From positions 1-50,164 of the IMG/VR virus record IMGVR_UViG_3300027516_000001: 50,164 nucleotides of DNA; one strand, given 5' to 3'. Shown here one piece after another: positions 407 to 50,164 of the stretch. Source of the DNA: a virus (Duplodnaviria > Caudoviricetes). The notes below the pieces were generated by a model, which was not told the DNA's origin, made no database searches, and was given only the letters and a program-made list of their open reading frames with translations. The position numbers and the translations under genes were made by a program. Numbering within the stretch: position 1 is the stretch's first letter; every line of letters starts with the position of its first letter.

Positions 407-1438
407 ATGCCTCAAGTTAGGGCGAAGTTTCCTCAACTCATGCAGCCGGGATTAAAGAAGATTTATTTCGATTCTCTCGACTCTCAGCTCAAGGCATCTG
501 ATTATCCGAAGGTCTTCAATGAAGAAAAATCGGATCAGCAGTATGAGCAAGAGCTGGAAATGGCGGGAATCTCTGCTTTACAAGAGAAGCCCGAAGATGC
601 TTCAACTGTTTATACAGAGATGAAGCAAGGTGGAACGAAAAGATTCGTCCATCTCACTTATTCTCTTGGGATTAGAACTTCCCGAGAACTTTACGATGAC
701 GATAAGTATGGCCTAACGGGTAAGAAAGGGCCACAACTTCTTGCGCGGTCTGCTGCTTTTACGCAAGAGATGGTAGCATGGAATGTCTTTAACATGGGAT
801 TCACATCCTCTGTACAAAGTGTTGATGGCAATCCACTCTTCTTCAATCAACATCCACTTCTAGGTGGTGCAGCAGCTACAAACTTGGCGCCTGGAGCAGC
901 TGGTGTAATTTCTCTAGCTGGCACTTGGCCTAATCGTCCAGCTGTTGATGTAGATTTTAGCGTAGCTGGACTTCAACTCGCCACAAATCACGCAGCTCGT
1001 ATGATTGACAATATGGGATTTCCCATTCGTTTGCGTTGGGAGAATCTCATAACTCCTCCAGAGCTACGCTTTCTGGTAAGAGAGATCTTGGGATCTCCTG
1101 GTAAACCTTACACATCAGATAATACAATCAATTCTCTGTTGCCTGAGGATTACAAGAATCTTGAGATTCCGTGGCTCAATTCTCCATCGAATTGGTACTT
1201 AGTCGCGGCGAAAACTGATCATTCAATGCGTGTCTATCATCGTGAGCGTCCTTCTACAGATTTTGACGATGATTTCGACACAGATGCGATCAAACAAAAA
1301 ACTCGCCTGAGAATGAGTGCCGGTGCTACAAGATGGCAAGGAGTCTGGGGCACGCAGGGTCCAGTTATAGCATTTTGCGCCCTCAGTCTTGGCGCAATGC
1401 TAGGTTCTGCGCTAGGCTCATTATTTGGAGCTTGTTGA
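407..1438 (+). CDS. Major capsid protein (Mu gpT-like/HK97-fold family) with a 24-aa hydrophobic C-terminal extension
   Basis: N-terminal QLMQPGL, TYSLGIRTSRELYDDDKY, DGNPLF..QHP and the C-terminal WQGVWGTQGP are typical of this MCP family; follows portal and scaffold. Confidence 0.9.
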   Translation: MPQVRAKFPQLMQPGLKKIYFDSLDSQLKASDYPKVFNEEKSDQQYEQELEMAGISALQEKPEDASTVYTEMKQGGTKRFVHLTYSLGIRTSRELYDDDKYGLTGKKGPQLLARSAAFTQEMVAWNVFNMGFTSSVQSVDGNPLFFNQHPLLGGAAATNLAPGAAGVISLAGTWPNRPAVDVDFSVAGLQLATNHAARMIDNMGFPIRLRWENLITPPELRFLVREILGSPGKPYTSDNTINSLLPEDYKNLEIPWLNSPSNWYLVAAKTDHSMRVYHRERPSTDFDDDFDTDAIKQKTRLRMSAGATRWQGVWGTQGPVIAFCALSLGAMLGSALGSLFGAC

Positions 1439-14241: not shown

Positions 14242-15546
14242 ATGCGGATAGCACTATCTTCGTATACTGGTTTAGGAGCATGGTTTGTCCTTCGTTTACT
14301 CTCGGAAGGACATGATGTGGATTATTTTCTTTCTAAATCAGAATACGGAGATGTGCTATCTGGCATTATTCCGAAGCCTAAAGTTTTAAGCATTGACCAC
14401 CGTAGAACTCTACAAGGATTTGGTTATGCATCTTACGCAGGATATGACCTCTCGATATTTGATCTTACGGGAAAAGCTAGACAAGCGGATTCTTCAAAAG
14501 GAGAATGTCCTACCTTTGGAGATGGAACGTTTGAATGCTTACTCGAAGATGATAGAGAAGCAGGGATCAAGTTCATGGAAACCTGTGATATCAAAACGCC
14601 ACCATACCAGAGATTCGATAAGGCTTCAGACGCTAAGAGTTTCATTAGAAAAACTGACAAAAGATATGTCTTCAAGCCCTTTACTCCGAGTGGCAGTACT
14701 CAAGATACTTCTACGACGTATGTATCCAAAGATGCAGAGGATATGATAAAGAACATAGATAATCTCTGCGCAGATGCTAAAGGGATGCCCTTTATCCTAC
14801 AAGAGTATATTAAAGGAATTGAACTCTCAGTTGAAGGATGGTTTAATGGAGAAGATTTCTTCCAAGTTACATGCGATATAGAAGAAAAGAAATTCATGAA
14901 CGATTGCAAGGGACCGAATACGGGATGTTCTGGAAATTTGATCTTCGCGATACATCAAGATATGCATATATATAAGGATACGCTTTTAAAGGCGAAGCCT
15001 CTTTTGCAAAAGATTGGATTCAAAGGAGTTATAGATGTCAATTCGATTGTTACTTCAGGGGAAGCTTATTCGCTTGAATGGGGACCAAGGTTTGGTTATC
15101 TATGTTGCCCTGTGTTTAGTAATATGTATGGCTCTGGTTTTGGAGATTTTCTTCATGCTATTGCATCGGGGAAAACTCCAAACACAAAATGGGCAGCATC
15201 CTTTGGAGCAGCAGTTACTATATCAGTACCCCCATATCCAACAGAAATACGTATGCCTAAAGCAAAGGATCTTCCTATAGAAGGAATTGATCCATATAAC
15301 TTAGATGAACTCCTAAATTGTTATCTCTATGACGCGAAATTAAATGGAAAAGGATTGATTACATCTGGTAATTATGGCTATATAGGCGCTCCTATAGGAG
15401 TTGGAGACTCTATAACAGAAGCGTTCATTAAATGTGATCGGCTTCTTGAACGAATTCAGATTCCTAATATGCAATATAGAACAGATATAGAGAAAGTGTG
15501 TTCAAAGAAATTCTATGATCTTGAGAGGGATGGGTGGTTCTCATGA
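14242..15546 (+). CDS. Divergent PurD (GAR synthetase)-like ATP-grasp ligase
   Basis: FILQEYIKGIELS, KKFMNDCKGPNTGCSG, LEWGPRFG, PPYP and YRTDI align with PurD motifs; lacks GxGGREH and EFNxRFGDPE. Confidence 0.85.
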   Translation: MRIALSSYTGLGAWFVLRLLSEGHDVDYFLSKSEYGDVLSGIIPKPKVLSIDHRRTLQGFGYASYAGYDLSIFDLTGKARQADSSKGECPTFGDGTFECLLEDDREAGIKFMETCDIKTPPYQRFDKASDAKSFIRKTDKRYVFKPFTPSGSTQDTSTTYVSKDAEDMIKNIDNLCADAKGMPFILQEYIKGIELSVEGWFNGEDFFQVTCDIEEKKFMNDCKGPNTGCSGNLIFAIHQDMHIYKDTLLKAKPLLQKIGFKGVIDVNSIVTSGEAYSLEWGPRFGYLCCPVFSNMYGSGFGDFLHAIASGKTPNTKWAASFGAAVTISVPPYPTEIRMPKAKDLPIEGIDPYNLDELLNCYLYDAKLNGKGLITSGNYGYIGAPIGVGDSITEAFIKCDRLLERIQIPNMQYRTDIEKVCSKKFYDLERDGWFS

Positions 15547-21854: not shown

Positions 21855-22010
21855 TTAAGAGGATTCGTCAGAGTATTTCTTCTTCTTTCCTGATCTCCTC
21901 GCTGTTTCTAGAGATGCTGCTACTGCTTGTTTCTGTGGATGGCCAGATGCCATCATCTCCTTGATATTCTCGGATACGACTTTCTTCGATTTGCCCTTCT
22001 TCAAAGGCAT
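21855..22010 (-). CDS. Small basic phage protein (MPLKKGKSKKVVSENIKE...QKQAVA type)
   Basis: Recognisable widespread small phage protein motif; start moved to 22010. Confidence 0.75.
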   Translation of the reverse strand: MPLKKGKSKKVVSENIKEMMASGHPQKQAVAASLETARRSGKKKKYSDESS

Positions 22011-22200
22011 TATACACCCCCATTGGTTTGTTTGTAAGAGTGAGAAGATCATCAATGGTAACTTTGTTACCTGTGATTATATCTTCCCAAACTTTGGTTG
22101 TGTCTTCGTCGAGCTTATACTCTAAGACAATTACTCTTAGAGCATTTTGCTCCAACGTAGTCAAGTGGCGAATGCTGTTCATTTTCCTGCTCCTTTTCAA
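21868..22200 (-). CDS. Hypothetical protein overlapping the small basic protein in another frame
   Basis: Coupled to the groES-like stop; open frame. Confidence 0.45.
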   Translation of the reverse strand: MKRSRKMNSIRHLTTLEQNALRVIVLEYKLDEDTTKVWEDIITGNKVTIDDLLTLTNKPMGVYNAFEEGQIEESRIREYQGDDGIWPSTETSSSSISRNSEEIRKEEEIL

Positions 22201-22937
22201 TTGGCTTGAATAAGGAAATCAAACGCCGCGAGATCTTCACCTCCTGTGATTTTACACCACGCTTGTGAAGCATCCATGATCTTGAACATCAATCCTGCTT
22301 TCGTAGGAATCATACTTCCAGCGTATGGTCCAAAGAGAATCCTATCTCCTACTTTAAAGTGCAGCTTCTCAATATCGCATTGCGATCCAATAGAAACTAC
22401 AACTCCTGTAGTCGGTAGATTCTTACTGTTATCTGGAAGATGAAGTAAGGCTCCAAGTCCCTTACATTCGGGACATGTTTCATCGTGTTGTACGGAAATA
22501 TAATTTCCGTTACACTCGGGACAGGGCATATTAACGCGAGCGTTAGCAACATCTTCACCCAAAGACTCTTTGATTGTTTGAATTTCATCTGGTCCATATC
22601 TCACTCCTGCGTGTCCACTCGCTTCACAATTGCAAAGAATGTGTATTGACTTTTTTCCTTTGCATTTTCTACATTCATACCCGCTTTTAAAAACATCGAT
22701 GGAAACAAGAATCTTTTCTCCGAGAGATTCGAATTTGTACGGAAACCCTGGAAAAGAGACTTCGTTTGAGTTGTCGAGAATAAGCTCAGTCGTACTTTTA
22801 CTTGCATTTTCCGCATCGATCCTTTCTTGCAGCTCTCTTACTCCCTTTGCGAGAGCTTCTGTTCCACTCGCAGCACTGGTTGACTTATGAATGGAATGTT
22901 TTGTCTCTCCGATTTGGTAATTGATTGTGTCATTCAT
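22197..22937 (-). CDS. groES: Co-chaperonin GroES/Cpn10-like protein with inserted DnaJ-type zinc finger
   Basis: SLGEKILV...LHLPD..K..PTTGVVVSIG...KVGDRILFGPYAG...KIM is the Cpn10 core; insert has CxxCxG repeats. Confidence 0.8.
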   Translation of the reverse strand: MNDTINYQIGETKHSIHKSTSAASGTEALAKGVRELQERIDAENASKSTTELILDNSNEVSFPGFPYKFESLGEKILVSIDVFKSGYECRKCKGKKSIHILCNCEASGHAGVRYGPDEIQTIKESLGEDVANARVNMPCPECNGNYISVQHDETCPECKGLGALLHLPDNSKNLPTTGVVVSIGSQCDIEKLHFKVGDRILFGPYAGSMIPTKAGLMFKIMDASQAWCKITGGEDLAAFDFLIQAN

Positions 22938-24157
22938 GGTTTACTCCCGTTTCTTAATCTCCACATTGTGGTCTTACCTACACTTGATGTTTCGCAAACG
23001 CTTGTATATTCAAGCAACCAAAGACATCTGTCAAGAGTCTCGATTGTTACATAATTGCGTAAATGCTTAAGCATAGATTGTTTGCTAGATATTCCAACTT
23101 TCTCAAGATAAGTTTGAATCTTTCCCATTGGGATAGCTAATTCAGATTCACCAGTTCCTCTAAAGATTTTCTCAAGATCTTTAAATACAGCTTTAATATA
23201 AAGAATCGCATTATCCATATCAATTCCCTCAATTATAAGCGAGTCTTTTCGCGCTGCTGCTAAGATCATCGCTAATTTTAATGTGTGCGTTTTAATACGA
23301 CCTCTAAAGTTAGCCACAGGTTCACTATCCATATCATTAGTGATATCAACGATCTTAAGAAAATTTTCAAATTTAACGCGCGCTTCTGTGTTACAGGTAT
23401 ATTCTCCTTTAAGGTTATATGATATATGCTGTAGGTCATTTTTAATACCCTGCATAATAGAAACAGATTGAGGATTAGATTCAAGAGCAGGAGGGAATGG
23501 AAGATACCTAGCGCGTTGATCAGCATATATAAATAAACACCTAGAAGTGAAGCCACCTGAGACTGGAAGATTGATATTTTTATTAATATTTTGTATAAAA
23601 TTAGGAACAGTGGCAGCGATAAAAGAATTGCACATACTTTTAATAGTATGCGTACCTTTGTTTTTCGTATCATATTCATAATCATGCCTATCCCAAGTGT
23701 CTGTTAAAAACGTCAACATCCAATCACTTGCAGTAAGTAAAACTTGAAGTTCAGTACTTACTATTAAGGATGTATGATCTAAAGCTCCTCCTATAACAAC
23801 TTGACCATTAACAATCTGAGGAACAGAAGAGTTCCATCCATTCGAAATCCTCTCTATAATCCTCGGTGCTGTAGTACGATCGGGAATTATGTTTATAATT
23901 TCGTTTGGTGCTGTACTCTTGATTATGTCCATTACAAAATTGATTGTCGTTCCCTTTCCTATTGCGGGCGGGGATACAAGGATGATGTATTGATTTGGAT
24001 ATAGTTCGAATAACCCCTCCTTGATGTAAACTTTGTTCTTAAGAACTGCTCCAATTAACGAAAACGCACCCCAAGTAATGAATTTATCAGGCGCTTCAGT
24101 GTGAGGTTGAACGCATCTTAGTATTGCGTCGTGGATACTAAATTTCAACTGCCTCAT
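22934..24157 (-). CDS. DUF3987-like P-loop helicase (primase-helicase C-terminal type)
   Basis: PNQYIILVSPPAIGKGT Walker A; LTDTWD, AATVP, GGFTSRCLFIY, HTLKLAM; C-terminal wHTH-like. Confidence 0.75.
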   Translation of the reverse strand: MRQLKFSIHDAILRCVQPHTEAPDKFITWGAFSLIGAVLKNKVYIKEGLFELYPNQYIILVSPPAIGKGTTINFVMDIIKSTAPNEIINIIPDRTTAPRIIERISNGWNSSVPQIVNGQVVIGGALDHTSLIVSTELQVLLTASDWMLTFLTDTWDRHDYEYDTKNKGTHTIKSMCNSFIAATVPNFIQNINKNINLPVSGGFTSRCLFIYADQRARYLPFPPALESNPQSVSIMQGIKNDLQHISYNLKGEYTCNTEARVKFENFLKIVDITNDMDSEPVANFRGRIKTHTLKLAMILAAARKDSLIIEGIDMDNAILYIKAVFKDLEKIFRGTGESELAIPMGKIQTYLEKVGISSKQSMLKHLRNYVTIETLDRCLWLLEYTSVCETSSVGKTTMWRLRNGSKP

Positions 24158-25613
24158 TGAGAGTTCCCTTCTTTGAACTCTCTGTTACTTGCTCCAGAGC
24201 TTCTTTGATTGTGTTTGTTTCAAAATCTTTCAATTCTACAGCGTCTGCGAAGGAATATCCTATTTTGTACTCAAGCGGAATCTTAACTTCAATACCATTA
24301 TGGAAACGTATAGTTCTATCAAAAGCATGATCCGTTCTATGGCAATGAGATTTAATCGTATCCACGTTTGCCACAATATCTTGTACAAGGGAATCATGTC
24401 CCTCTTGAACGATACTGTCGTCTCTATCTTTATCACTCGATTCCAAAATAAGCACAGCGATACCCGTGTTGTCTCCAATAGTAGATTGTGGAATAAAAGC
24501 ATAGGCTTCTTTAAAGATTGTAGAGTTATAATCTCCAGGCCGCGCTCCAAGAAATTGACGTTCTCTTTTGAAGGGGGTAATGAGAATCCGTGAATTGCTG
24601 ATGCAGTTTTGGACATACTTATGAAATACTCCTTTCACATTTGGCTCAACGATATCAACTTTGTGTAAAAGAACTTTACACGTAGGCTCTGGTACAGAGA
24701 ATCCTTCTTTCGCAAGTTCATCGCTCATTCTAGGCGAAGTCATATCATAATTATGAGCATGGCGAGTCTTTTTTCCTAAATAACGTTCCATAGAAGCTTT
24801 CCATTCCTTTTTAGAGCGAGAAGAGATAGGTATATTAAATATCATTGAAGCTAACTTTGTATGCCTATCTATTCTCGCATTTAGCTCCTGTAACGCAGTA
24901 TAATTCTGCGAAAGCGCCTGAACTGGCCAATCTTCAGCTTGATATTGATCTACGAAGAGAAATATGTTTCCGGGTCTTGGGATAAGGCATTCTCTAAAAT
25001 AGACAGCGATGTCAGAGTGCTCTGGGAAATTTTGGCCGTTGTTGCCAAATCCAAAAGTATGTTTCTTGCTACTTCTGCGTCCTGTAACAGTACCTGCAAC
25101 ATTGTATATAGAGAGGAAGTAATACTCTCCTCCTCTGGGAAGGAGCCTTGCGTTAAGATAGCCTGACTTAAGTTTGCCAAGTTCTCGTACCTTAAGAATA
25201 GCTTTGATAGCGGGATCACCGCCGGGGAATCCGAATTGATTTGTTGATAACATTTTCTGGAGAGCAAGCTCTCCGGTGGAGTAAGTGGCCTCATAATCAC
25301 CTTCCTCATTTTTCTTTGGGATTTTGGGGACGTTATAACCGAGATCATCTTTGAGTTTCTTGAGTAATGCATATTCTCCTTGTGTTGCATTCAAATTAAC
25401 TGCGCCGTTTGTGCCTGGATTGTTATCTTTTCCGATAAAAACAGAACAACCCCATTGATTAGATGCTATCGCGAGATTACGCGCGATCTCTGCGTTTATA
25501 ACTAATCTAGATTTCTTTAAACGCTCTACATCTACACGAATTCCTCTATTAGAAATATCATAATATGCACACTGAAGATCGTGTTCATAGCGAGATGTAA
25601 TCTTAAACTCCAT
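24138..25613 (-). CDS. polA: Family A DNA polymerase, polymerase domain only
   Basis: RGIRVD; GTVTGRRSS; NGQNFP; motif A DQYQAE; motif B RYLGKKTRHAHNY; PQST; motif C GHDSL. Confidence 0.92.
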   Translation of the reverse strand: MEFKITSRYEHDLQCAYYDISNRGIRVDVERLKKSRLVINAEIARNLAIASNQWGCSVFIGKDNNPGTNGAVNLNATQGEYALLKKLKDDLGYNVPKIPKKNEEGDYEATYSTGELALQKMLSTNQFGFPGGDPAIKAILKVRELGKLKSGYLNARLLPRGGEYYFLSIYNVAGTVTGRRSSKKHTFGFGNNGQNFPEHSDIAVYFRECLIPRPGNIFLFVDQYQAEDWPVQALSQNYTALQELNARIDRHTKLASMIFNIPISSRSKKEWKASMERYLGKKTRHAHNYDMTSPRMSDELAKEGFSVPEPTCKVLLHKVDIVEPNVKGVFHKYVQNCISNSRILITPFKRERQFLGARPGDYNSTIFKEAYAFIPQSTIGDNTGIAVLILESSDKDRDDSIVQEGHDSLVQDIVANVDTIKSHCHRTDHAFDRTIRFHNGIEVKIPLEYKIGYSFADAVELKDFETNTIKEALEQVTESSKKGTLNEAVEI

Positions 25614-25788
25614 TGACTTTTACCCCCGTAAGTTTGTACCCGATGAAATTGTGAATAGGGAAATAATCATTTTCTAACCTATAACACATCTCATTTACTG
25701 CCCAGATGCTCTTTTCGCGCAGATCTTCTTCTTTATAATCTGCGCTTATTGTAACTTCGATTGTGAGTTTGATCTCATTCATGCTCAT
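25603..25788 (-). CDS. Small hypothetical protein between the two polymerase halves
   Basis: ATGA overlap with the exonuclease stop; overlaps the pol start. Confidence 0.55.
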   Translation of the reverse strand: MSMNEIKLTIEVTISADYKEEDLREKSIWAVNEMCYRLENDYFPIHNFIGYKLTGVKVNGV

Positions 25789-26885
25789 CCCCTTAAGTGA
25801 GGTCTTTCTTTGAACTCTTCTTCTTGAGCTTCCCACACTTCGTAAGTGACACACACGTCGAGCGCATTATAATGCATTAAATCCGTCATATGCTTTATAT
25901 TCCATCTCTTGCCGTCGTCTTTATAGAATGGAGTTCTTGTATATTGACGCGTCATAAATTGAAGCTTATGCGAAAGCTCAGGCCATAGAATATGATGCCT
26001 AATTAAGGTATCTTCTACCTGCTTAGGCTTTATATTAAATCCTATGGCTGCTTGGTAGTAAGTATCGAAGTTAATAAAATTTTGACCGATGATTCTTGCC
26101 TGAGAGATGAGATCATCATATGCTCTCCATAGAATTCTACTTTCCTCGATGCTGTCACGATATAATCTGAATGATACCCCGAAATCAGCTGAATCTGCGA
26201 GTCCAATGACGATAGCAAAACCTGGGTGAGGAAAGAACTTTGATTCCTTTTTTGGATAGACCGTCTCAATATCATTAGAGAGATATTTTGCTCTGGAAAA
26301 TCTTTCGAAGTAGTTAAGTAACTCGTTAAGATCAATTTGATCATAACAGATGAGTTTCCTTTCGCGAAGTGGCTGCACTTTACCAGTTACTTTCCAATAA
26401 TTGAACTCATCTTTTATTTTCTGAAGATCAATATACACAGTGACGTTACGCTCTGTCCAATCTTGTGCGCATTTATCAGGACCATGTATTGGCATCATAT
26501 AATGAGGGAAAGGAAATCTATCACATGTCATGAGAGAGCCAACGTACTTATTTAATTGAGTCTTATAGCTCTCTTTTACAGAGCGCGCTCTCATCTCAGG
26601 AAAGAAATAAGATCCCACTTCATTAGCCAATAACATAAAAGGAGGCTGATAATTGAGAAGAGCACTATCAATAGTAGCGTACAAAGTAGGATTATCAGTA
26701 TCCGGCCTACGAGCACACACATATATATCGAAAATGTTAAGTCCTGCCTCTGAGAGCATCTTCTCGAATACATAACCCATACCTCCACTAAAGAGATATC
26801 CTTTTGGAATATCCGAAGGAAAAGGATGATCCAGAATCAACCAAATTCGCGATGCTGGATCACCCCTTGTGTGTATATACGGCAT
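25785..26885 (-). CDS. Degenerate family-4 UDG-like domain fused to PolA 3'-5' exonuclease
   Basis: G...SRIW.I...P...D..KG.LFSG..G..F..ML..AG (UDG-like); ExoI DIET, ExoII GQNFINFD, ExoIII YNALDV. Confidence 0.85.
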   Translation of the reverse strand: MPYIHTRGDPASRIWLILDHPFPSDIPKGYLFSGGMGYVFEKMLSEAGLNIFDIYVCARRPDTDNPTLYATIDSALLNYQPPFMLLANEVGSYFFPEMRARSVKESYKTQLNKYVGSLMTCDRFPFPHYMMPIHGPDKCAQDWTERNVTVYIDLQKIKDEFNYWKVTGKVQPLRERKLICYDQIDLNELLNYFERFSRAKYLSNDIETVYPKKESKFFPHPGFAIVIGLADSADFGVSFRLYRDSIEESRILWRAYDDLISQARIIGQNFINFDTYYQAAIGFNIKPKQVEDTLIRHHILWPELSHKLQFMTRQYTRTPFYKDDGKRWNIKHMTDLMHYNALDVCVTYEVWEAQEEEFKERPHLRG

Positions 26886-33132: not shown

Positions 33133-33366
33133 CTAGAAGTTCTTTTCTTTTTCTTTGTTCTTATTAGCCTTAGGAATAAAATCCTTCCAAACAGCAGTTT
33201 GTCTCTCTTGCACGTCACAACATTTTGTACAAAAGAAGACAGTAAATACCAGAGTATCTGGACCTTGTATCTTACGATAAGTATCCAGAGTCTGATAAGC
33301 ATGTCCTTCACGTTCGCATGAAGTTTTTGTTAGTTTAGGAGAAGACATATGTCCTCCGTATTTCAT
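33133..33366 (-). CDS. Small Cys/His protein
   Basis: C....H...C..C. Confidence 0.5.
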   Translation of the reverse strand: MKYGGHMSSPKLTKTSCEREGHAYQTLDTYRKIQGPDTLVFTVFFCTKCCDVQERQTAVWKDFIPKANKNKEKEKNF

Positions 33367-34522
33367 TATGCTGCGATGTTACAAGAGCAATATCCTGCGT
33401 ACTGACATACGCAGAATGTGCTCTCTTTAGAACATCTGAGCCTGCAATTTTGTAGAGATAATCTCCTTTTCCTAACAAACATTCAGCTCCATTTTCATCC
33501 AATACTACTCTTGAGTCAGCCATTGTTGGTAATTTGAAGCAAATTCGCGCAGGAAAGTTAGCTTTCAAATCACCACTCAAAACTCTCACAGAAGGTCTTT
33601 GTGTGGCAATAATGAGATGTATTCCTGCTGCGCGAGAAATAGCAGCAATTTGTTTCGTTAGCATCTCTATACTTGTAGGACGATCCTTCTTTGGAGTTCC
33701 CGCCCAAAGTATCTCATCTTGTTGGATAATATCCGCAAACTCATCCATGATGATTACTTTGTACTTGAGTTTCTGTCCCATTCCAAGGTTATTCCACTCA
33801 GCTATATTGCGAGCATAACCGCTCATTAACTGAGTTCTCCTTCGTACTTCAGCGAGAGCACTTTCGAGAGATGCACGCAAATCCTCAACTTCGCGGATAA
33901 CTGAAGAAACGTGCTCTAGATCCTCAAAGAATACTAGATCAAGTTGCTTTGTATCCACTAGCGTAAAGCTAAGCTCTTTTGGAGATTTGAATAGAGCCAA
34001 GCTCGCTATAAATTGCGAAGTTGCGACTGATTTTCCTGAGCCAGTTGTACCTGCCATGAGCAAGTGAGGTTGAGTAGCAAGATCAGCGTACAGATAATCT
34101 CCTCTAGTATTCTGTCCCATAAGTAGGGGCAACTGCATATCTCTAACTTGAGGAGATGTAAGTAATTCATGCAAGCAAGAATCAAATCGTATGGTGATAC
34201 GATCTTCTCTCGGTACTTCAATTGCAACGAGTCCAGCATTTCGCTCGATTCTAACGCTCTCTACATTAAGCGTTCCAGCGAGTTCCTCTTCTTTATTCAA
34301 TATCTTACTGAATAAGGAACCCTCTGATGGTTTAAAGAAAAAGGTCCGAAGAATCGGACCTTCCTCAAGTTTCTCAAAGAATGCAGCGAATCCTAAAATA
34401 AGCATCTTGTGAGATAGCTTACCTATTTGTTGCTGCACCTCAATCGGCAGAGTATCTGCTTTCGAATTCAGATTCATCGGCATCTTTGTGGTTTCCTTTG
34501 CAGGGTAAGGTTCGTGGATCAT
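33335..34522 (-). CDS. ftsK: FtsK/SpoIIIE-like DNA translocase ATPase (no membrane domain seen)
   Basis: PHLLMAGTTGSGKS, VIIMDEFAD, RAAGIHLIIATQRPS, KANFPARI, GAECLLGKGD. Confidence 0.93.
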   Translation of the reverse strand: MIHEPYPAKETTKMPMNLNSKADTLPIEVQQQIGKLSHKMLILGFAAFFEKLEEGPILRTFFFKPSEGSLFSKILNKEEELAGTLNVESVRIERNAGLVAIEVPREDRITIRFDSCLHELLTSPQVRDMQLPLLMGQNTRGDYLYADLATQPHLLMAGTTGSGKSVATSQFIASLALFKSPKELSFTLVDTKQLDLVFFEDLEHVSSVIREVEDLRASLESALAEVRRRTQLMSGYARNIAEWNNLGMGQKLKYKVIIMDEFADIIQQDEILWAGTPKKDRPTSIEMLTKQIAAISRAAGIHLIIATQRPSVRVLSGDLKANFPARICFKLPTMADSRVVLDENGAECLLGKGDYLYKIAGSDVLKRAHSAYVSTQDIALVTSQHNEIRRTYVFS

Positions 34523-43643: not shown

Positions 43644-45512
43644 GTGCTTTTGGAAGAGAAAACAATCCGAGATACTCTCTCCTCGTTAGACTCTCTACAG
43701 CATGGATTACTGGGGGAGAAGATTATCCCAAGGGAAGCTATCCTCAATTATCGTCTTATTCCTACAGAACTAATACAGGGGAATGCGAAACGCCTTGCGT
43801 TCAGATTAAACTCTTTAATGGATCTGTATTATTTTTCAACCATTGTACTTCACAGAAACAAGTTCTCGCGAAATCCAGATTTAAAAAGAAATCTTCATTA
43901 CCAGATGTGTTTGCTTGTAATGAAAGATGGACTAAAAGAAGGTATAGAAATACCTCGGGATCACTTAAAAAGTACTGTATACAGCGAATGCGCTCCTATA
44001 TGGTGGGCACTTCCTTTCGGCCATCGCGAGGAGGATTATTTCACAAATTTAGGATACAACGACTTATATATTCAATGGATGAAAAGAACTCATAATCAAG
44101 ATGTACGCATAATTTTAGTATCGGAGACGATTAAGAATGCGACCAAACTTGGTGGTAGAATCGCGAACCATTATGAAAATAACGACCTCTTTAGAGAACT
44201 CTTCTTCGATATTCTCCCTACTGAGCGAGAAACGTGGACAGCCGATTCTTTACATCAACGACGTACCAGTGCAGGAAGAGGACACGGAGAAGGCACTTTT
44301 GATTTTATTGGCGTTGGTGCCGCTTTACAATCGAGACATTACAATAAATGCGTTCAGGACGATCTCGTTGGACGTGAAGCTAGAAAAAGTGCCGTTGTAA
44401 TGCAAGATACGATTGATTATCATCAAGTATTAGTAGGAGCGACGGATTCTGACTCAGATGACCCAGGGAGGGATTTCGATGAACTCGTGGTGGGTAATCG
44501 CTGGAGTACAGACGATCTCAATTCACACATACGGAAAGAAGAACCCTACTTCACTTGGACAACCCATGCAGCACTCGGAGGGTGTTGTTCATTACATCCT
44601 TTCGGTGAACCAATATATCCAGAGGGATTCACTAAAGAAAAGCTTCTACGATGGAAGCGGCGTTTGGGTACATATCATTTCTCCTGCCAATTTCTCAATT
44701 TTCCTATTGACCCGACTAAAGCCAAAATCAACATGGGAGATTTCCGCTTTTTTCACTTTGAGCGCACGTACACCGCTGCCGCTACGCCAAAGATAATTTG
44801 GGTGAATGAAACCCAGGAAATTGCTCCAGCTGCGCAATATCGTATCGCGATTAGGCATCATGTAGCTGATGGAGATGTTGAGAAAGATGTATATCCGAGA
44901 AATCTCGAAAGATTTATTATTGTTGACCCAAATCACGGAGGACAACACAGTACAGGCGAGCCTGGCAAAGGGGGAAGATGCCGCCATGCTATTGTGGTGT
45001 CTGGGATACAGCGAGATCCAAGAAGGATCTACGTATTGGATCAATGGGCAGAAGCATGTTCTATTGAGAACTTCGTTCGTAAGTTGTTTTTCTTAGCCTT
45101 AAAATGGAAATTGCGTAAAATTCACGTAGAAGGTGTAGCTTCGCAGAAGTTCTTACTTTACCATCTTAGGTATTTTATAGCCCGAAATCGCAAAGAATAT
45201 CCAGATTTGAGTGGGATTGAGATTGTAGAACTCAAAACTCCTCAAACAGTAGGCGCGAAAGAGGAGCGTATTGATAACTTCATTCCTATTATAGAGAGGC
45301 ATGAAGTTTGGCTTGATGCTAATAATTCAAGCGAAATTCGCGAAGAAGCTGAGGCTTGGGGACAAAAGAGGTATCTTATAGATCTCCTCGATGTTCTCTC
45401 TTATGGACCTCAGATTTGGGAATTTGATTTAGTATCTGAAGATGAAGTTTCAGAGTTCTTGGAGCAGCGTAAGGCGCTTTATCTCAAGAATGTAAGAGCG
45501 TTAAGTGCGTAA
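43644..45512 (+). CDS. terL: Terminase large subunit
   Basis: Walker A-like PRDHLKST; RHY...DDLV Walker B; VGNRW; FSCQFLN.P; nuclease IIVDP...E..A.Q...K.ERI...DLLDVL. Confidence 0.9.
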   Translation: MLLEEKTIRDTLSSLDSLQHGLLGEKIIPREAILNYRLIPTELIQGNAKRLAFRLNSLMDLYYFSTIVLHRNKFSRNPDLKRNLHYQMCLLVMKDGLKEGIEIPRDHLKSTVYSECAPIWWALPFGHREEDYFTNLGYNDLYIQWMKRTHNQDVRIILVSETIKNATKLGGRIANHYENNDLFRELFFDILPTERETWTADSLHQRRTSAGRGHGEGTFDFIGVGAALQSRHYNKCVQDDLVGREARKSAVVMQDTIDYHQVLVGATDSDSDDPGRDFDELVVGNRWSTDDLNSHIRKEEPYFTWTTHAALGGCCSLHPFGEPIYPEGFTKEKLLRWKRRLGTYHFSCQFLNFPIDPTKAKINMGDFRFFHFERTYTAAATPKIIWVNETQEIAPAAQYRIAIRHHVADGDVEKDVYPRNLERFIIVDPNHGGQHSTGEPGKGGRCRHAIVVSGIQRDPRRIYVLDQWAEACSIENFVRKLFFLALKWKLRKIHVEGVASQKFLLYHLRYFIARNRKEYPDLSGIEIVELKTPQTVGAKEERIDNFIPIIERHEVWLDANNSSEIREEAEAWGQKRYLIDLLDVLSYGPQIWEFDLVSEDEVSEFLEQRKALYLKNVRALSA

Positions 45513-46185: not shown

Positions 46186-48123
46186 ATGCCATATACGCCT
46201 CCAATTTTATTGCGCGAAAGTGATTGGGGAAAAGAAGAGTATAAAGATTTATGCACTTTTATAAAAGATAAAGTGAAACATCTAGACATGAGGCTACAAG
46301 CCTTTAGAACTGAGAAACTTCCTGAATATGTACGTTTATATAAAGGTAGACCTAAAAATAAAGAAGTAGATTGGCCTTGGCCTGGAGCAGCGAATTTAGT
46401 AATTCAACTCATAGGCACTTTCTCAGATGAGTTACTCTCGCGAGTTATTGGCTCTATTTGGCTTTATGATCCTCTTTGGACAGCAGTTCTTGGTGGAGAT
46501 ATTCCTAATAAAGAAGGGAATAGCCAAAAACAAATTTTAGAGCAATTTCTTATGGATATGGCGTATACGCCAGAGGAATTGGATCTTTATAGAGTAGAAC
46601 AAGCCGCTGATCATAGCGCGATAAAGTATGGAACAGGATGGGTTTATACTCCTTATGAGTATACTAAAGAGATAGAGTATACATATATAGGAGGGGGAGA
46701 AAGCTCCAGTTCACTACCTCATGGTGAACCGCGCGAGGTCACACGCAGGGATGGCCCACATCCTGAACTTCTCCCCCTCAATAGAGCGTTGTTTGATCCA
46801 TCTTCGTCAAATTTACAAGACATGAAATTTTATGGCTTTATACAACCTCTCGATTATTGGGATGTAAAAAACTTGCCCTCGAAGAGTCCGTACTATAAGG
46901 ATGCGGATATAGAGCAGATGCTCAATAGTCCTGATGCAATACAAGAAACTGAAATGGAGCGAGAAATTAATGAGCAATTTTCATTCGGTAGTGGAATTGA
47001 CACTGGCGCGGCTAGATGGTATATTTATAACCTCTTCTTCAAATACCAGAAGGGTGAACAAACATTTAGCTTTGGCGCGAAGTATTGGAAACATGAAGAA
47101 AAGATTTTGTATATTACATATAACAACTATCCAGACAATATTGATCCCATCGAAGATGTAAAACTCTCTTACGATGATGAGACATATTTAGGCGAAGGTT
47201 ACGCTGAGATGCTACATGCGTATCAAAAAGAGTTATCGAATAACTCTAATTGGCGCACGAACAATCGTAATTATAACATGATGGGGGTGTGGCGTGTCTC
47301 ACCAGAAAGTAAACTCTCAAGTATTCTCGAATTTTATCCAGGTGTTGCGGTTCCTGCAAAAGAAGGGGAAATTGAGTTACTTAAACCCGGAGCAGACACA
47401 GGTTATAACGACGGACCTGATCAATTTATTTCAGCTCTTGCCAAGGAACGCGCAGGTATTGATCCTGCGATCGGCGGTACGGGAGGTGGGATTGTCAACC
47501 CAAAACGAGGTATATACAGCGCGGCGGGAACGTCTATGGTAATGGCGCAACAGAATAATAGAAATAATATAAGAACAGCAGATATGCGTACATTTCATGT
47601 AAGATTGGGAATTAAATTCTTAAAGATGTATTCTCATTGGGGAATTGGCGGGCGTTTGAGACGTTATGGAGATAATGCAGAAGCTTTAAGGAAAGCTTTG
47701 GATAACTTCAAAAATGGCTCTCTTGGACTGTACATGCGTCCTACATCTGCAATGTATAATAAGGAATTAGAGCGCCAAAATGACATTCTTCTTACAGATA
47801 AAATGGGAGCTTGGGTTCAAGCGCAGGCGCAAATAATTGAAGCGGTTATGAATCCACAAATCCCTCCTCCATTAAAAATGTACTACGCTCAAGCGTTAAT
47901 TGCAAATAGACTCTTGATGCAAGATCTATTGCGTAATTTCAACAAAACTAATGTGGAGACTCTATTACCACAAATCAAAGACATTGTAGCAATGTCTATG
48001 CAACCACCACAAGGAGCAGGAAATGCAAATCAATCGAATGGAAGACCTAATCCCACTCAAGGCGTCCCTCAAGGAGCTGTACAGTTTGGAGGAGTTCCAG
48101 GTACTCCACAGCTTCCTCAGTAG
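46186..48123 (+). CDS. Portal protein (P22/T7-like)
   Basis: PWPGAANL, AIKYGTG, YLGEGYAEML..YQ.E, ER.GI....G, Q-rich tail; between TerL and scaffold. Confidence 0.85.
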   Translation: MPYTPPILLRESDWGKEEYKDLCTFIKDKVKHLDMRLQAFRTEKLPEYVRLYKGRPKNKEVDWPWPGAANLVIQLIGTFSDELLSRVIGSIWLYDPLWTAVLGGDIPNKEGNSQKQILEQFLMDMAYTPEELDLYRVEQAADHSAIKYGTGWVYTPYEYTKEIEYTYIGGGESSSSLPHGEPREVTRRDGPHPELLPLNRALFDPSSSNLQDMKFYGFIQPLDYWDVKNLPSKSPYYKDADIEQMLNSPDAIQETEMEREINEQFSFGSGIDTGAARWYIYNLFFKYQKGEQTFSFGAKYWKHEEKILYITYNNYPDNIDPIEDVKLSYDDETYLGEGYAEMLHAYQKELSNNSNWRTNNRNYNMMGVWRVSPESKLSSILEFYPGVAVPAKEGEIELLKPGADTGYNDGPDQFISALAKERAGIDPAIGGTGGGIVNPKRGIYSAAGTSMVMAQQNNRNNIRTADMRTFHVRLGIKFLKMYSHWGIGGRLRRYGDNAEALRKALDNFKNGSLGLYMRPTSAMYNKELERQNDILLTDKMGAWVQAQAQIIEAVMNPQIPPPLKMYYAQALIANRLLMQDLLRNFNKTNVETLLPQIKDIVAMSMQPPQGAGNANQSNGRPNPTQGVPQGAVQFGGVPGTPQLPQ

Positions 48124-49771: not shown

Positions 49772-50164
49772 ATGGCGGGTGCAAACCTAACTACTCATCT
49801 CCCTATCATTCAGGTGCAGAATAAGGCGAACACAACTCCGTTCACTTATGGAATGCCTGAAGCTAGGTCACAAACGTTTGTTAATGGTGCTCCAGTTATG
49901 ATTACGATTGGAGCTGATCCTGATGGTGTAGGATACGTGAAAGAGTGGGACGCGGCGACTTTTACAAACGCGATCCTTGGCGTATCTGAATCCGCAGGTG
50001 CTAACTACGCAACTGGTGGAGCGGGTGCGCCTACTCCTCCTTGGGGTGGAATTACTGGAAGTGGCGCAGTTCAAACATATCCAAATCCTCCAATTCCAAA
50101 CCAGCCAAATGCTGTAAACATCGCTCTTGGTACACCTGTAGCAGATGGACGCACTTTGTTCATG
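49772..50164 (+). CDS. 5' part of the junction-spanning capsid accessory protein (missing from ORF track)
   Basis: RBS AGGAGGG; MAGANLTTHLPIIQVQ... open to the end and continues at base 100. Confidence 0.8.
   Translation, partial: MAGANLTTHLPIIQVQNKANTTPFTYGMPEARSQTFVNGAPVMITIGADPDGVGYVKEWDAATFTNAILGVSESAGANYATGGAGAPTPPWGGITGSGAVQTYPNPPIPNQPNAVNIALGTPVADGRTLFM
50066..50164. repeat. Terminal direct repeat, identical to 1-99
   Basis: Exact match. Confidence 0.97.

Follow-up and report, generated by a model that had tools for sequence, protein, structure and literature searches.

Introduction

Can a phage protein serve as a GroES-type lid when a cysteine-rich (Cys-rich) domain is lodged in its mobile loop, and what would such a domain be for? 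The question is raised by a gene of an uncultured tailed phage (Duplodnaviria; Caudoviricetes), IMG/VR virus record IMGVR_UViG_3300027516_000001, of which positions 1 to 50,164 were analysed (the window, 50,164 nucleotides). The gene, at 22197..22937 on the minus strand (stop codon 22197-22199), is a GroES/Cpn10 homologue with an inserted putative zinc-finger module, recognised by Pfam Cpn10 and PHROG 3188; its 246-residue product, taken from the list of open reading frames (ORFs) and their translations, is here called P0001. The mobile loop of GroES is, in textbook terms, a short disordered segment whose flexibility tunes the binding of the lid. P0001 is probably a phage co-chaperonin for host GroEL that carries an accessory zinc module on this loop, and the same layout recurs in many uncultured phages.

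Cpn10 core and mobile loop

Pfam Cpn10 (PF00166) matches residues 165-224 of P0001 with 33.7 bits (curated cut-off 21.1; E 3.7e-8), over no more of the 93-position profile than positions 24-87, and PHROG 3188, co-chaperonin GroES, matches the C-terminal part of the protein (E 4.6e-6). The 97-residue GroES of genome G001 (L003:1087-1380) was used as the canonical reference. Aligned with it, strand beta1 of P0001, KFESLGEKILVSID (residues 68-81), pairs with KIRPLHDRVIVKRE, and G-A-L-LHL-PDNSKNLPTTGVVVSIG pairs with GG-IVI-PDTATEKPIFGKVIAVG; the triplet L164-H165-L166 occupies the I-V-I/L position of canonical GroES. The number of residues from the triplet to the PTTG anchor is the same in the P0001 family as in the GroES of G001. 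An original prediction, made from the sequence of the window, had placed a break in the Cpn10 core between beta1 and the hydrophobic triplet; Pfam, this alignment and the fold matches given below all agree with that placement.

All parts of the protein are given here with their positions on the minus strand. Residues 1-51 (22785..22937) form a variable N-terminal extension, delimited by a 30-row alignment of P0001 and relatives (alignment A1) and by the secondary structure of an AlphaFold2 (AF2) model, in which a beta-hairpin (4-17) and a helix (25-47) are predicted with a low to moderate predicted local distance difference test score (pLDDT, 44-68); in many relatives in A1 the extension is shorter or missing. 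Residues 52-81 (22695..22784) comprise a conserved pre-strand (52-67, LDxSNxVxFPGFPY; L54, D55, N58, F62 and P63 invariant in 30/30 rows of A1) and then beta1, located by the canonical GroES alignment and ending in D81, which is likewise invariant in 30/30 rows. In all, 67 residues precede beta1, the variable 1-51 and the conserved 52-67, in agreement with the extension of about 65 residues predicted originally. Residues 82-162 (22452..22694) are the insert with eight Cys, delimited by Cys/Gly invariance, DnaJ/BSD2 profile scores and pLDDT. They replace the descending arm of the mobile loop, about 9 residues long, for a net insert of about 72-75 residues; the short flexible arm typical of Cpn10 is not present in P0001, and a folded Cys-rich module is predicted in its place. 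Residues 163-177 (22407..22451) are the retained half of the mobile loop, namely L164-H165-L166, P167 and the ascending arm up to PTT, with the pattern and spacing of the canonical GroES of G001 (GGIVIPDTATEKP). Residues 178-246 (22200..22406), assigned by Pfam, Foldseek and A1, hold the rest of the Cpn10 beta-barrel, a shortened roof-hairpin region and a C-terminal tail (GGEDLAAFDF) in which G232, F239 and F241 are invariant in A1. Compared with canonical GroES, the roof-hairpin region is 5 residues shorter in P0001 and 9 residues shorter in distant relatives. Two further Cys, C187 and C227, lie beyond the insert.

Triplet positions were numbered backwards from the Pro of the PTTG anchor that precedes strand 2, and statistics could be obtained for the 107 representatives with a recognisable anchor (of 146, P0001 included) and for 119 of the 121 close relatives; both sets are defined below. 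The three positions are hydrophobic in 107/107, 98/107 and 99/107 representatives, with Pro next in 99/107, and in 119/119, 87/119 and 119/119 close relatives, with Pro next in 115/119; the middle residue is His in 21 and Glu in 9 of these 119. By alignment, the loop of P0001 keeps the canonical triplet, the Pro that follows it and the ascending arm.

The AF2 model of P0001 (built on the 30 rows of A1; mean pLDDT 72.6) shows a Cpn10-type beta-barrel. When it was searched with Foldseek against solved structures, 1wnr_C (E 1.3e-4), 1p3h_A/B and 1g31_A (E 1.3e-3) were retrieved at probability 1.00, with template modelling (TM) scores by target of 0.59-0.68; the flanks of the insert are modelled as Cpn10, as had been expected of them. 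Further matches at probability 1.00 include 3nx6, human Hsp10 and GroES within GroEL complexes; a search of BFVD with the model gave entries named co-chaperonin GroES from uncultured viruses. The family profile, searched against solved structures, found GroES 3nx6 (E 1.7e-5) and Cpn20/23.

Cysteine-rich insert

The eight Cys of the insert, predicted originally within about 75 residues, are all present: C89-x2-C92-KG, C102-x-C104, C138-x2-C141-NG and C155-x2-C158-KGLG. They are arranged in the order arm (VFKSGYE), outer pair C89xxC92, C102xC104, helical hairpin, C138xxC141 and outer pair C155xxC158-KGLG. Motif 4 is of the type CxxCxGxG (CPECKGLG); the form CxxCxG is found in motifs 1 and 3, and CxC in motif 2. 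The helical hairpin (about 116-134) lies between the inner Cys pairs, and about 33 residues part motifs 2 and 3 in the subfamily of P0001; a motif spacing of 13/37/16 residues is common to 80 proteins of the set examined.

Conservation is concentrated at the ends of the insert. C89, C92, G94, C155, C158 and G160 are invariant in 30/30 rows of A1. In a second alignment (A3), in which 113 homologues were aligned with a 94-residue crop of P0001 (114 rows), C89, C92, C155, C158 and G160 are invariant in 114/114 rows and G94 is nearly so. Judged from these alignments, the Cys/Gly conservation of the insert is not due to chance. Among the motifs only 1 and 4, that is, the outer Cys pairs C89/C92 and C155/C158, are invariant: 9/30 rows of A1 are short forms with these two motifs only, about 20 residues apart, and in the close set 18/121 proteins are short forms, and four or five Cys pairs occur in the remaining 103. 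Almost no variation is seen at the base of the module (F83, K84, G86, Y87, E88, both outer Cys pairs and G160/G162), and the tip is about 20 to about 63 residues long, depending on the family member.

In the DnaJ Cys-rich domain (PDB 1exk), motifs 1 and 4 form one zinc site and motifs 2 and 3 the other. The short forms lose motifs 2 and 3 together, which fits a nested, DnaJ-like topology; and the chain would enter and leave such a domain at the outer zinc site, so that it can sit inside a loop. From this pattern we infer that the module binds two zinc ions in nested fashion, C89/C92 with C155/C158 (outer) and C102/C104 with C138/C141 (inner).

Resemblance to known Cys-rich domains was found at several levels. 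BSD2_CRD aligns with residues 83-111 of P0001 at 16.6 bits; the family profile, compared with solved structures, reaches DnaJA2 (7zhs, in the zinc-finger region; E 2.4e-3) as well as Anti-TRAP (3lcz, E 0.025). Nowhere is the model of P0001 more confident than in the module (block-mean pLDDT 81-97, residues 91-160), and folded alone, with 114 rows, the insert has a pLDDT of 81. In a Foldseek search of the insert alone the ranking, non-significant throughout, begins with BSD2 6ekb (E 0.071, probability 0.72) followed by BSD2 in Rubisco assembly complexes, with DnaJA3 2ctt at rank 13 and DnaJ 1exk at rank 17. On family-level evidence, a module of DnaJ/BSD2 type replaces the descending arm of the P0001 loop.

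Occurrence of the family

A word-seeded search restricted to proteins of 135-431 residues gave 133 close relatives at E<=1e-3, of which 120 together with P0001 make up the close set (121). Among the matches listed, close relatives come from metagenomes or metagenome-assembled genomes (MAGs), many on contigs of 48-51 kb, and are named 'co-chaperonin GroES (HSP10)' or 'hypothetical protein' in their sources. When 1.84 billion cluster representatives were searched exhaustively with the family profile, 354 clusters (50% identity) matched at E<=1e-3; the stricter limits of E<=1e-10 and E<=1e-30 left 121 and 12. At least two CxxC are present in 142 of the best 150 of these 354 clusters; in the same 150, four or more were counted in 109, three in 13, two in 20, one in 3 and none in 5. 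P0001 belongs to the three-CxxC type, its second motif being CxC, and the 8/150 with one or no CxxC are gene fragments or ordinary tandem Cpn10 proteins.

Pfam was scanned with 146 proteins, P0001 and 145 of the best 150 representatives (P0140, P0150, P0257, P0259 and P0262 were left out). At E<=1e-3, Cpn10 was matched by 129, DnaJ_CXXCXGXG by 50 (best E 4.1e-10), BSD2_CRD by 17, Anti-TRAP by 11 and ADH_N (PF08240) by 5. Matches of these 146 proteins fell in 13 families in all; the J domain (PF00226) is none of them, and P0001 has no match to it even at E<=10. Pfam PF27659.1 is precomputed on four relatives among the matches listed (P0020, P0031, P0069, P0073) and may bear on whether part of the layout is already catalogued.

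The family gene was located in 38 loci, 36 in IMG/VR and 2 in a genome collection. At least two Cys pairs follow the hallmark F-K-[ST]-G-Y-E-C in 37/38; the exception, L033, is cut by a contig end. Distant members at 25-35% identity (e.g. L024, L028, L031, L035) have three or four canonical CxxCxGxG repeats, which in these four run straight into GG-[IL]-[LIV]-V-[VA]-P. With P0001 and the distant members of L031 and L018 as queries, tblastn found no match in 50,697 phage records; fused forms were not found at E<=1e-3 among proteins of 432-2000 residues, which is weak evidence for their absence. By these counts the layout is a trait of the family, conserved in a large clade of uncultured tailed phages.

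Phage genome and gene order

An exact 99-bp direct repeat at 1-99 and 50066-50164 indicates that the window represents the entire genome of the phage, about 50.07 kb long and either assembled as a circle or terminally redundant; its GC content is 41.2%, and no tRNA genes were found in it. Its genes include those of a major head protein (407..1438), a large terminase (TerL, 43644..45512), a putative portal protein (46186..48123), a tail-spike-like protein, a primase/DUF3987 protein, Sak4 and an exonuclease. In the seven ORFs of at least 500 residues there is no chaperonin-family match (six searched against PHROGs and Pfam, the 962-residue ORF against PHROGs only), and any GroEL partner must therefore be the host's.

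The ATG of the P0001 gene overlaps the stop codon (TGA) of the upstream primase-like gene (22934..24157) by four bases, ATGA. Directly after the P0001 gene lies a 110-residue ORF (21868-22200, minus strand), which overlaps it by a TTG start and matches neither Pfam nor PHROGs; in locus L002 a 113-residue ORF sits between the primase and the GroES-like gene instead. The family-A DNA polymerase (PolA) is encoded in two ORFs about 170 bp apart on the minus strand, an exonuclease/N-terminal part and a polymerase part (24138-25613, 25785-26885), and the same split is present in related loci. An FtsK/SpoIIIE-like ATPase (33335-34522, minus strand; PHROG 1358, E 6.3e-79) is encoded in the early/replication region and coexists in this phage with a classical large terminase. 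In the tail/structural module, beside the tail-spike-like gene, lies the gene of a 434-residue ATP-grasp protein (14242-15546, plus strand; GARS_A-like, E 6e-12), kept at 47-63% identity in 14/28 compared loci, those whose stretch reaches that far.

Gene order was compared in 28 of the 38 loci (left out were the near-duplicates L010, L011, L013, L018, L020, L028, L037, L038 and L039, and the truncated L033). The gene is kept in 28/28. The order of the window, PolA - primase - this gene, converging on tail genes, is shared by 18; in the other branch of 10 loci (L024, L025, L027, L029, L031, L034, L035, L036, L040, L041) the GroES-like gene lies directly upstream of the TerL and portal genes on the same strand. 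TerL is 33-40% and the portal 27-29% identical to those of the window in both synteny groups. Its retention in both orders marks the gene as a kept component of one broad phage clade, with a position not tied to a single module.

A 163-residue short form, P0122, is encoded on contig C2 (638 kb) of MAG G001, recorded as an uncultured Gammaproteobacteria bacterium, which carries an ordinary groES-groEL operon besides this related element. The phage-like element, G001:C2:189324-214663 (L002, L005), has matching replication genes, a TerL 67% identical to that of the window and a head-protein homologue of 84% identity interrupted by one in-frame TAG; none of 20 PF00589 (integrase) matches lies near 185-235 kb of the contig. 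Possible explanations are a prophage in decay, an error of sequencing or a join made in assembly. A further member of the family is encoded on a contig of 47.7 kb in the bin of a Sulfuriferula MAG.

Discussion

The evidence is best accommodated by a phage-encoded lid for host GroEL with a zinc module on its loop. By analogy with GroES and T4 gp31, P0001 would form a heptamer and dock on host GroEL through L164/H165/L166. The module would form a compact knob carried by the loop, five residues ahead of the triplet that would contact GroEL, and docking would place seven knobs at the junction of GroEL and lid. Because its base is nearly invariant and its tip variable, the base is read as an organiser of the loop or a second contact surface with the apical domain at this junction, where it might shift affinity or the geometry of the cage to suit phage proteins, in the manner of gp31; the tip may be a lineage-specific adaptor.

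Several observations weigh against this reading of P0001. Docking could be hindered sterically by a bulky domain that stands five residues away from the triplet. The junctions at 82-86 and 164-171 have a pLDDT below 50 in the monomer model, so that module and barrel are defined by the model and their mutual position is not; a 'rigid clamp' is not supported by it. The insert alone gave 0 Foldseek matches in PDB at E<=1e-3, and one of the four motifs is CxC rather than CxxC. The original prediction had named a profile check with Cpn10 on either side of DnaJ_CXXCXGXG. Its first half holds, Cpn10 scoring above the cut-off; in P0001 itself its second half fails, DnaJ_CXXCXGXG (PF00684) reaching 23.5 bits on residues 134-161, below the cut-off of 32.7, yet this family is matched by 50/146 scanned proteins. 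The name 'DnaJ-type' would accordingly apply at family level, and P0001 is not to be filed as a DnaJ. The middle residue of the triplet is His, unusual for GroES of the E. coli type; a polar residue there is not unusual for viral GroES, 23% of the 1,479 sequences in a virioplankton survey having, in its available text, a charged or polar residue at the second or third triplet position (PMC5649160). A complex prediction of residues 50-246 (with A1) and the GroEL apical domain (191-376) of G001 with two zinc ions scored 0.02 and 0.08 against a mark of 0.32; it was run without controls and with a stand-in GroEL from the putative host of another element, and counts neither for nor against binding.

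Compatible with GroEL binding, though in our view unlikely, is a lid that delivers clients, the role named first in the original prediction: seven DnaJ/BSD2-like fingers would bind phage proteins in a non-native state (capsid, portal, others) and pass them into the cage of GroEL on docking, combining a holdase surface of the Hsp40 type with an Hsp10 lid. The module resembles protein-binding domains, assembly intermediates included among what they bind (DnaJ Cys-rich, BSD2_CRD and Anti-TRAP matching 50, 17 and 11 of 146); BSD2 is the top structural neighbour of the insert, not significantly; the variable tip suggests lineage-specific partners; and in 10/28 loci the gene stands directly upstream of TerL and portal. 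Against this, in 18/28 loci it closes the replication operon, outside the head module, and the short forms that are retained shrink to one zinc knuckle, about 20 residues between its Cys pairs, with little surface for a client. The same operon position, last behind PolA and primase, with the P0001 gene translationally coupled to the primase-like gene, could be taken to mean that GroEL is not involved and that the Cpn10 barrel is a ring scaffold for zinc fingers acting as a holdase, an assembly factor or a nucleic-acid-related replication factor. GroES-like folds are reused outside chaperonins, and ADH_N was matched by 5/146. This is quite improbable: the motif G-[GA]-hydrophobic triplet-P-[DE] and its spacing are kept as strictly as in true GroES, which goes unexplained if GroEL is not bound; the sequence matches are to Cpn10 proper (129/146) and not to domains of the alcohol dehydrogenase type; and the synteny of the TerL/portal group argues against a replication-specific role.

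If the ring does dock, it might also do so as an inhibitor in host takeover, blocking or re-routing host GroEL or another seven-fold ring such as ClpP. A GroEL-binding motif beside a bulky domain that could trap the complex would suit such a role, and co-chaperonin rings cap ClpP in a chloroplast complex whose chains (7ekq) are among the matches as Cpn20/23. Those matches reflect Cpn10 homology only, and the phages' own proteins presumably need the folding capacity of the host; inhibition is very improbable. To a bridge between the Hsp70 and Hsp60 systems or a redox or zinc sensor, both raised in the original prediction, we assign hardly any probability. The J domain is the part of DnaJ that contacts DnaK, and the low rating follows mainly from its absence: neither P0001 nor any other of the 146 scanned proteins has one, and they have no known DnaK handle. 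The invariant CxxCxG/CxxCxGxG pairs look, moreover, like structural zinc sites. What speaks for these roles is the DnaJ type of the Cys-rich module and, for a redox function, the weak thiol-reductase activity of the DnaJ Cys-rich domain reported in the available text of one study (PMC4428491).

In a phage co-chaperonin for host GroEL, the preferred reading, a folded metal domain in the mobile loop would surprise chaperonin specialists. Kept by purifying selection across hundreds of phage lineages, such a domain would show that the junction of lid and GroEL tolerates and exploits large additions, and the P0001 family would offer a natural system for the study of how phages re-tool the host chaperonin, by affinity, cage geometry or client recruitment. 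It is doubtful, if conceivable, that two chaperone principles are fused here in one chain, seven Hsp40/BSD2-type fingers on the GroEL-docking loops of an Hsp10 lid capturing capsid or portal chains and releasing them at lid closure. If true, a substrate-delivering co-chaperonin would be a new mode of client loading; we know of no chaperonin system in which clients are loaded by lid-borne capture.

The labels 'GroES' and 'hypothetical' in metagenome annotation hide the module. In full-text literature searches no description of a GroES/Cpn10 with an inserted zinc finger was found, although the supplementary alignments of the viral GroES survey might show such inserts; the word 'zinc' is absent from the main text of that survey as available (PMC5649160). 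The possibility, raised at the outset, that the architecture is already catalogued as common is therefore half right: the layout is common in metagenomes, labelled as plain GroES, and the zinc module is undescribed in the literature found. As far as annotation and alignment go, a GroES with a putative zinc finger in its loop is widespread in uncultured phages.

Comparison with known systems

The GroES-like domain of alcohol dehydrogenase (PF08240) carries a structural zinc lobe of four Cys. The likeness is an analogy only: the P0001 family matches Cpn10 proper (129/146) and has neither the Rossmann domain nor the catalytic zinc ligands of the enzyme. Closer to the insert are the DnaJ Cys-rich domain (PF00684) and its stand-alone relatives BSD2 (PF25436) and Anti-TRAP (PF15777), with which it shares repeats of the CxxCxGxG type and matches of family profiles; a nested arrangement would fit the short forms. 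Unlike DnaJ, P0001 is without the J domain and the DnaJ C-terminal domains, and its module sits in the loop of another domain; unlike the DnaJ Cys-rich domain, it scores below the Pfam cut-off, has CxC as motif 2 and has a helical hairpin of about 33 residues between motifs 2 and 3.

T4 gp31 and RB49 CocO are, like P0001, phage-encoded proteins of Cpn10 fold, and the gp31 and CocO lids work with host GroEL. To our knowledge, gp31 has a longer loop, with neither an inserted domain nor a metal site. An altered mobile loop and a reduced roof hairpin are described for gp31 and CocO in the available text of the virioplankton survey (PMC5649160); in P0001 the loop is altered too, and the roof-hairpin region is shorter. 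The comparison with gp31, drawn originally from the sequence, proved apt, the AF2 model matching 1g31_A (E 1.3e-3, probability 1.00, Foldseek) and the roof-hairpin region being shortened in P0001 too. No significant sequence match to gp31-type proteins was obtained, the nearest being the 'head morphogenesis' PHROG phrog_931 (E 0.038). A capsid-folding role is shown for gp31, whereas for P0001 it can only be inferred.

Compared with canonical GroES (97 residues), P0001 (246 residues) has an eight-Cys insert of about 80 residues for the descending arm, an N-terminal extension of 67 residues that includes the conserved pre-strand, a roof region shortened by 5 residues and a C-terminal tail that is conserved. 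With bacterial GroES/Cpn10 it has in common the beta-barrel core, the N-terminal strand, the loop motif of G-G/A-hydrophobic triplet-P-D/E and the same spacing from the triplet to the next strand.

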